NCBI GenBank assembly: GCA_963780265.1
Contig: CAWABQ010000033.1
Span: 3,701-67,700, forward strand
Origin: Candidatus Bathyarchaeota archaeon
GTDB taxonomy: Archaea > Thermoproteota > Bathyarchaeia > 40CM-2-53-6
Direction of reading: 5' to 3'
Length of the DNA stretch: 64,000 bases
The stretch's first letter is position 1. Each line of letters begins with the position of its first letter. Below the pieces are notes generated by a model, which saw only the letters and a list, made by a program, of their open reading frames with translations, was not told the origin of the DNA and did no database searches. Below, piece by piece: positions 51,015 to 51,208 of the stretch. The position numbers and the translations under genes are program-made.

Positions 51015-51208
51015 GCGGGGGTAGGCCACGCGCAGAGCGTGCGTTAGTCCCCCACTGCCAAACTCTCGGATGTCGAGAGGGCGAAGCCAGGTCAAAGGTG
51101 CGAGACGTATCCAAACCATACGTACGTGAAGCTCAGGAACATCAAACCTGATGTTAGGAGACCTCGTCCCGTAGGGGTTCAGGGGTTCGAATCCCCTCCC
51201 CCGCACCA
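51015..51208 (+). tRNA. trnL: tRNA-Leu(CAG) with four BHB introns and encoded CCA
   Basis: Exons 51015-51022, 51056-51061, 51086-51104, 51131-51137, 51161-51208 splice to GCGGGGGTTGCCAAGCCAGGTCAAAGGTGCGAGGCTCAGGACCTCGTCCCGTAGGGGTTCAGGGGTTCGAATCCCCTCCCCCGCACCA, a full cloverleaf with long variable arm. Confidence 0.9.

Follow-up and report, generated by a model that had tools for sequence, protein, structure and literature searches.

Whether a single archaeal tRNA gene can be interrupted more than three times and still give rise to a tRNA is the question raised by positions 51015-51208 (+) of a 64,000-nt stretch, hereafter the window, of a Candidatus Bathyarchaeota contig. Three introns are the archaeal maximum given by the tRNAscan-SE 2.0 paper ('up to three' in its available text; PMC8450103) and by two reviews ('a maximum of three introns' and 'up to three introns' in their available passages; PMC4033280, PMC4390854), and this is the published limit that a preliminary description of the locus had named. 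With four introns, the window gene exceeds this range of at most three per gene.

The locus opens with a 7-nt strand complementary to 51198-51204, and the latter strand is preceded by a perfect T arm and followed by an A and then CCA. Between these ends, five exons of 8, 6, 19, 7 and 48 nt and four introns of 33, 24, 26 and 23 nt were delimited, all on the forward strand. Exon 1 (51015-51022, tRNA positions 1-8) is followed by intron 1 (51023-51055) at site 8/9, exon 2 (51056-51061, positions 9-14) by intron 2 (51062-51085) at site 14/15, and exon 3 (51086-51104, positions 15-30) by intron 3 (51105-51130) at site 30/31. Exon 4 (51131-51137, positions 31-37) includes the anticodon CAG at 51134-51136 and is separated by intron 4 (51138-51160), at the canonical site 37/38, from exon 5 (51161-51208, positions 38-76), which provides the variable arm, the T arm, the 3′ acceptor strand, A73 and the encoded CCA. 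When the introns were removed, a canonical cloverleaf was obtained, and ARAGORN classified the 88 nt joined by coordinate as a class II tRNA-Leu(cag) with a long variable arm. A73 and a long variable arm are marks of tRNA-Leu, and both were found here, A73 at 51205 and a 14-nt variable region with a 3-bp stem. Coordinates, intron and exon lengths, central helices, bulges and the 88-nt type II Leu(CAG) product were all as the preliminary description had given them. Taken with the comparisons below, these data make it very probable that 51015-51208 is a functional Bathyarchaeia gene for tRNA-Leu(CAG), with four short BHB introns at 8/9, 14/15, 30/31 and 37/38. Two other classes of disrupted gene were ruled out from the layout, a split or permuted tRNA gene by the colinearity of the five exons at 51015-51208, and a group I or group II intron by the intron lengths of 23-33 nt and by the lack of an Rfam family match in the window.

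It had been suggested that standard finders may miss such a gene, and indeed both ARAGORN and the Rfam tRNA model left it uncalled on the unspliced sequence. We then used a solver of our own, a cloverleaf search in which BHB-like deletions may be placed at any point on the 5′ side of the T arm, and its best solution consisted of exactly these four introns, with a score of 22.8. None of 300 dinucleotide shuffles of the interior reached this score (shuffle maximum, 21.4); the solver is permissive, and since some solution was also found in 249 of the 300 shuffles, the test is weak on its own. The locus could also be parsed with fewer or different introns, as in the ARAGORN output on the unspliced stretch, a tRNA-Val (aac) with one 97-nt intron. 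Such a parse has a virtually negligible probability, because orthologues lack intron 1 or intron 2 singly, at the predicted junctions, and because uninterrupted Leu(CAG) genes run colinearly through all four junctions, as described below.

Each of the four introns shows a central helix with its two bulges. The hBHBh' motif is complete in intron 1, where an outer helix G1C2/G10C11 and a 3-bp inner helix accompany a central helix GGGG/CCCC, formed by positions 3-6 and CCCC, and the bulges are GT^A and AC^T. Introns 2, 3 and 4 are relaxed and depart from the strict BHB. Intron 2, an HBh' motif, has a central helix TGCC/GGCG (positions 9-12) and an inner helix of 6-7 bp without an outer helix, and a minimum-energy fold computed without constraints contains its module. 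In intron 3, a central helix TGCG/CGTG (positions 25-28) is accompanied by bulges AG^A and AA^G and by a 2-bp outer helix with C32 U33; the inner helix is offset by TA (2 nt) in this genome and its nearest relatives, and adjoins the central helix in shorter orthologues. The central helix of intron 4, CTCA/TAGG, carries a C.A mismatch in 18/18 rows of the orthologue alignment. The outer helix of this intron is the anticodon stem, which amounts to 1 bp in the precursor and to 6 bp with the other introns out, and forms only after removal of intron 3.

To place the gene among its relatives, 40 related genomes were searched at the DNA level. The whole gene was found in 16 genomes of the same genus, and just partial or paralogous matches in the remaining six genomes of the genus; an exact-pattern scan of one genome per species returned 19 stretches, nearly all in MAG records titled Bathyarchaeia or Bathyarchaeota. 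The 33 parsed loci were reduced to 18 distinct orthologue sequences, of which 14 have four introns, two are without intron 1 and two are without intron 2. In the former pair (L010 and L011) positions 8 and 9 are directly joined, and in the latter (L004 and L005) positions 14 and 15, in each case exactly at the predicted junction. Counted per genome within the genus, 13 have four introns, two are without intron 2 and two without intron 1. Further, uninterrupted Leu(CAG) genes (L052, L053, L059, L060 and L029) were found; they come from two sister genera within the family, from two other families and from an additional MAG record. They have the same length as the predicted product and align with it gaplessly across all four junctions, those of introns 3 and 4 included, with 81, 73, 73, 68 and 66 of 84 positions identical; unlike the window gene, they carry neither the introns nor the leader copy described below. 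The four introns and their exact splice points, as first proposed from the window, are thus borne out by the presence or absence of introns 1 and 2 among relatives and by the gapless match of the product to uninterrupted genes. Because the same gene is intronless in sister genera, the intron gain is datable within one family.

The introns of the orthologues range from 16 to 33 nt, and their sequences diverge with compensatory changes. Over the four central and inner helices, standard pairs occupy 93.3% of the cells of the 18-row alignment, compared with 37-63% for slid partners as a control. Four BHB pairs change on both sides, and the covariation score was reached by none of 500 shuffles. These comparisons bear on the possibility that the locus is a decaying pseudogene, in which the insertions would be junk and no tRNA would be made. 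Although a pseudogene would fit with the gene being missed by standard finders and with the lack of spliced RNA in the contigs of four RNA runs, the exons are near-invariant across the 18 distinct sequences (a handful of differing positions) while whole-gene identity drops to 74%, the insertions keep their BHB pairing through compensatory changes, and another Leu(CAG) was found in none of five genus genomes. This explanation is therefore extremely unlikely. The last point comes from a search with the uninterrupted gene, by which no uninterrupted Leu(CAG) copy was found in the window's own assembly (G000) or in G013, G014, G010 and G018, two of the genomes being 100% complete; a check for another Leu-CAG gene, asked for in the preliminary description, thus returned none in these five. 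An ARAGORN Leu(cag) at 13118-13215 of the window was read as a false positive, because a 119-aa ORF (13059-13418) encloses it in antisense orientation and the Rfam search gave no match there.

Two side observations concern related sequences within the genus. The tRNA-Leu(UAG) paralogues of genus relatives (L018-L020) carry a 14/15 intron whose ends resemble those of intron 2 of Leu(CAG), and are interrupted once more near 29/30; sites 8/9 and 37/38 are intronless in them, and the leader copy is missing. The likeness of the two 14/15 introns points to shared ancestry or to intron transfer between the paralogues. In addition, an orphan exon 5 following the last ~11 nt of intron 4 was found in G013 (L022, C2, about 122836-122895), a genome that also has the full gene, and this orphan may represent a duplicated attachment site or a fragment of a gene.

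The region upstream of the gene was then compared. A putative TATA-like promoter box, AGCTTTATGT, lies at 50958-50967 (+) and is conserved in the orthologue upstream alignment. It is ~20 nt farther from +1 than in the other tRNA genes of the genome, and the same ~20-nt shift was found relative to the intronless genes of the sister genera (L052 and L053), in which the box precedes position 1 by the usual 30-35 nt. At the start of the extra leader stands GTGCGGGG (50991-50998, +), a copy of the 5′ acceptor strand that is complementary to positions 67-74 (51199-51206); the remainder of the presumed 5′ leader (50999-51014, +), as deduced from promoter spacing, would be removed by RNase P. The copy is unchanged in 17/18 orthologue rows, with variable flanks, and sits at the distance from the TATA box at which +1 lies in intronless orthologues.

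The 8/9 intron is used in at least three tRNAs of the lineage, Leu, Asn and Cys, and across the families of this archaeal order a leader copy accompanies every one seen. The survey also took in loci L098-L138, and the other copies in G000 are on C13 at about 70443-70450 (-) and on C35 at 6159-6165 (+). For Leu(CAG), the copy was present in 16/16 sequences with intron 1 and in 0/5 uninterrupted genes. For tRNA-Asn(GUU), 22 loci were examined and each of the 21 parsed ones combines the intron with a copy 12-21 nt upstream; for tRNA-Cys(GCA), the copy lies at -11 to -15 in 17/17 loci with the intron and was found in none of 2 intronless loci. The two Leu(CAG) sequences without intron 1 still carry the copy, with 8/8 and 7/8 bases, which fits a recent intron loss in these sequences. 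The flanks of the copies differ wholly between families, and this indicates that the copies are under selection.

By ensemble folding, the leader copy was predicted to pair with the 3′ strand in 55/55 precursors, and the pairing persisted in 53/53 when the 8/9 intron was removed in silico. Since the folding is the same with and without the intron, the model is unable to tell a transient helper from a permanent competitor, and it gives no account of how the helix is resolved. We tentatively suggest, as a possibility somewhat less likely to hold than to fail, that the leader copy may be a dedicated cis helper for 8/9 introns: by pairing with the 3′ acceptor strand it would free bases 3-6 for the central helix of the intron, and would tether the 8-nt exon 1 until ligation.

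The leader copy could alternatively be the true start of exon 1, with the 22 nt between the two copies forming a fifth intron at 5/6. The copy is located where position 1 lies in intronless orthologues, the product of five introns would be identical to that of four, and in tRNA-Cys the matching word CCGG, as read from the sequences, is a perfect palindrome. In such a model the central helix would be UGCG/UGCG with bulges GG^G; this helix, however, has two G.U pairs, is without an outer helix and has a 1-bp inner helix, and its 3′ strand is AGCG in 7/18 rows, without compensation. In tRNA-Asn, such pairing is impossible despite the same leader copy, and self-pairing of a 4-nt word is expected by chance in about one case in seven, with up to seven registers open. 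A fifth intron is accordingly very unlikely, and the four-intron structure is retained in what follows.

Exons 2 and 4 are just 6 and 7 nt long, and neighbouring motifs share bases for this reason. G10 and C11 are needed by the ideal motifs of both intron 1, in its outer helix, and intron 2, in its central helix; C32 and U33 are needed in the same way by the outer helix of intron 3 and by the central helix of intron 4. Positions 27-28, which belong to the central helix of intron 3, are also required for the anticodon stem that closes intron 4. In their ideal form, the BHBs of introns 1 and 2 are mutually exclusive, and so are those of introns 3 and 4. Some archaeal BHB motifs form only after the neighbouring intron has been removed, according to the available text of PMC8450103, as in the window gene. 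The four reduced modules, consisting of central and inner helix, show no overlap, and an endonuclease accepting bulge-helix-loop substrates could in principle cut them in any order. Simultaneous cuts around a 6- or 7-nt exon would release that exon, which makes sequential removal more plausible. Given the motif overlaps, neighbouring introns are probably removed one after the other, an order that we infer from the sequence.

RNA contigs were compared with the locus. No splice joints were found in the contigs of four RNA runs (X17-X20) compared with 50900-51320, contigs being unable to show absence. One 515-nt contig from an oligo-dT library covers 51007-51211 in unspliced form, with 9 differences and flanks unlike those of the window; it may derive from DNA or from a relative, and therefore says nothing on splicing.

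In the pathway that we propose, transcription would be driven from the TATA-like box and would start ~24 nt upstream of position 1. An (alpha-beta)2 two-subunit endonuclease would make eight cuts, one in each 3-nt bulge following its second base, the five exons would be ligated by RtcB, and the leader would be taken off by RNase P, the CCA end being encoded. The genome of the window itself encodes an RNase P RNA (168.6 bits) and RtcB, the latter read in two frames.

A tRNA-endonuclease domain (PF01974) match was found in 12/14 genus relatives, with two matches in 8 and one in 4, and the two matches score about 80-85 bits and about 52-58 bits. In one relative, G014, the stronger match is a 190-aa alpha subunit, the closest structure to which is the catalytic subunit of Aeropyrum pernix (3p1z_B, E 1.5e-38), and K43/K45 of this subunit align with K44/R46 of the A. 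pernix specificity loop. For the heterotetramer endonuclease of A. pernix, the specificity loop was shown to confer broad specificity in the available part of PMC3241643. The weaker match of G014 is a 187-aa protein in which, by reading of the sequence, the catalytic histidine region is missing. By sequence, then, a predicted two-subunit EndA with the broad-specificity lysine loop in alpha is present in relatives, in line with the broad-specificity EndA that this gene had been expected to need. The catalytic subunit was not found in the window's own assembly, which is 75% complete. In that assembly, the structural EndA subunit (C42:30768-31300, -) and RtcB (C13:14617-15928, +) are each encoded in two overlapping frames. 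These frame breaks and the missing catalytic subunit probably reflect assembly indels or gaps, and could be real.

The gene is one of several with many introns in its genome. When applied to G000, the solver solved 16 CCA-tailed genes with 36 introns in total; one of these genes has no intron, four have one, four have two, four have three and three have four. Some 11 further candidates gave no solution, and chance loci without CCA score 16-19. Besides Leu(CAG), four introns each were assigned by the solver to a tRNA-Pro(GGG) at C18:43371-43547 (+) and a tRNA-Lys(UUU) at C42:43661-43845 (+). Four introns were likewise obtained by the solver in 14/14 genus loci of tRNA-Pro(GGG) and in 10/13 parsed loci of tRNA-Lys(UUU), two loci of the latter being without the first intron, exactly at the junction. 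The comparison of orthologues took in Leu, Pro, Lys, Asn and Cys. The Rfam tRNA model found just 17 genes in the whole assembly (2.08 Mb in 48 contigs), and with 17 tRNAs called by standard finders in a 2.1-Mb genome, tRNA counts are misleading for the grading of such MAGs.

With respect to the surroundings of the gene, its neighbours encode an alcohol dehydrogenase and a DRG-type GTPase, and no integrase was found next to it. Synteny with the closest relatives (L002-L004) is lost right after the last base of the tRNA gene (51209 onward), and a 42-nt unit occurs as a twofold repeat at about 51335-51417. A tRNA 3′-end-like fragment is located ~305 nt downstream (51514-51628), in which a T-arm hairpin is followed by a 66-nt insert and then by a 3′ acceptor strand with ACCA; on inspection by eye, no BHB fits in the insert (51533-51626). 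The fragment belongs to a family of about 10 genome copies that have in common an 18-nt conserved lead-in and the hairpin. The copies inspected on C9 lie just 3′ of ordinary genes and on the same strand, and no integrase was found in the repeat-bearing regions of C9 and C45.

Similar to the known multi-intron archaeal tRNAs, the window gene combines several short BHB introns at canonical and non-canonical sites, and belongs to a lineage with a predicted two-subunit endonuclease that likewise bears a specificity loop. It differs from them in having four introns, not three, in its two micro-exons of 6-7 nt between adjoining motifs and in the conserved leader copy alongside the 8/9 intron. Its host is also different, being a genus of Bathyarchaeia MAGs from peat and soil, whereas the known multi-intron hosts are hyperthermophilic crenarchaea. 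The nuclear tRNA-Ile(UAU) of the red alga Cyanidioschyzon merolae is comparable as well: as described in the available text of PMC3728597, it has three introns, BHB introns interrupting the D region, site 37/38 and other positions as in the window gene, and a partial removal order established by RT-PCR and tied to motif stability. That alga is a eukaryote and its order was measured, whereas the order proposed here is deduced. In the available passages on the split and tri-split tRNAs of Nanoarchaeum and Caldivirga (PMC4090602, PMC4390854), the junctions are of BHB type and are processed by the same endonuclease, and pairing of leader or trailer sequences holds the pieces together, as predicted for the window gene. 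In contrast to those tRNAs, all pieces of the window gene are colinear within 194 nt on one strand, and the leader would pair with its own 3′ strand, whereas the leaders of split tRNAs pair with another transcript.

A full-text literature search, with most subscription papers and supplements outside its scope, returned no four-intron archaeal tRNA, no tRNA introns of Bathyarchaeia and no acceptor-strand copy in a leader; the novelty of both the four introns and the leader copy may be affected by Sugahara 2007/2008, Fujishima 2010, supplements, SPLITSdb and GtRNAdb. Compared with the published range, the gene would raise the ceiling of archaeal tRNA disruption from three to four introns, and would extend multi-intron tRNAs from the hyperthermophilic Thermoproteales to a widespread lineage of peat and soil. 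The co-occurrence of 8/9 introns and leader copies offers a concrete and testable idea of how very short exons may be held during splicing. If it is true, the leader copy and the interlocked motifs around the 6-7-nt exons would give this five-piece tRNA a built-in order of assembly.
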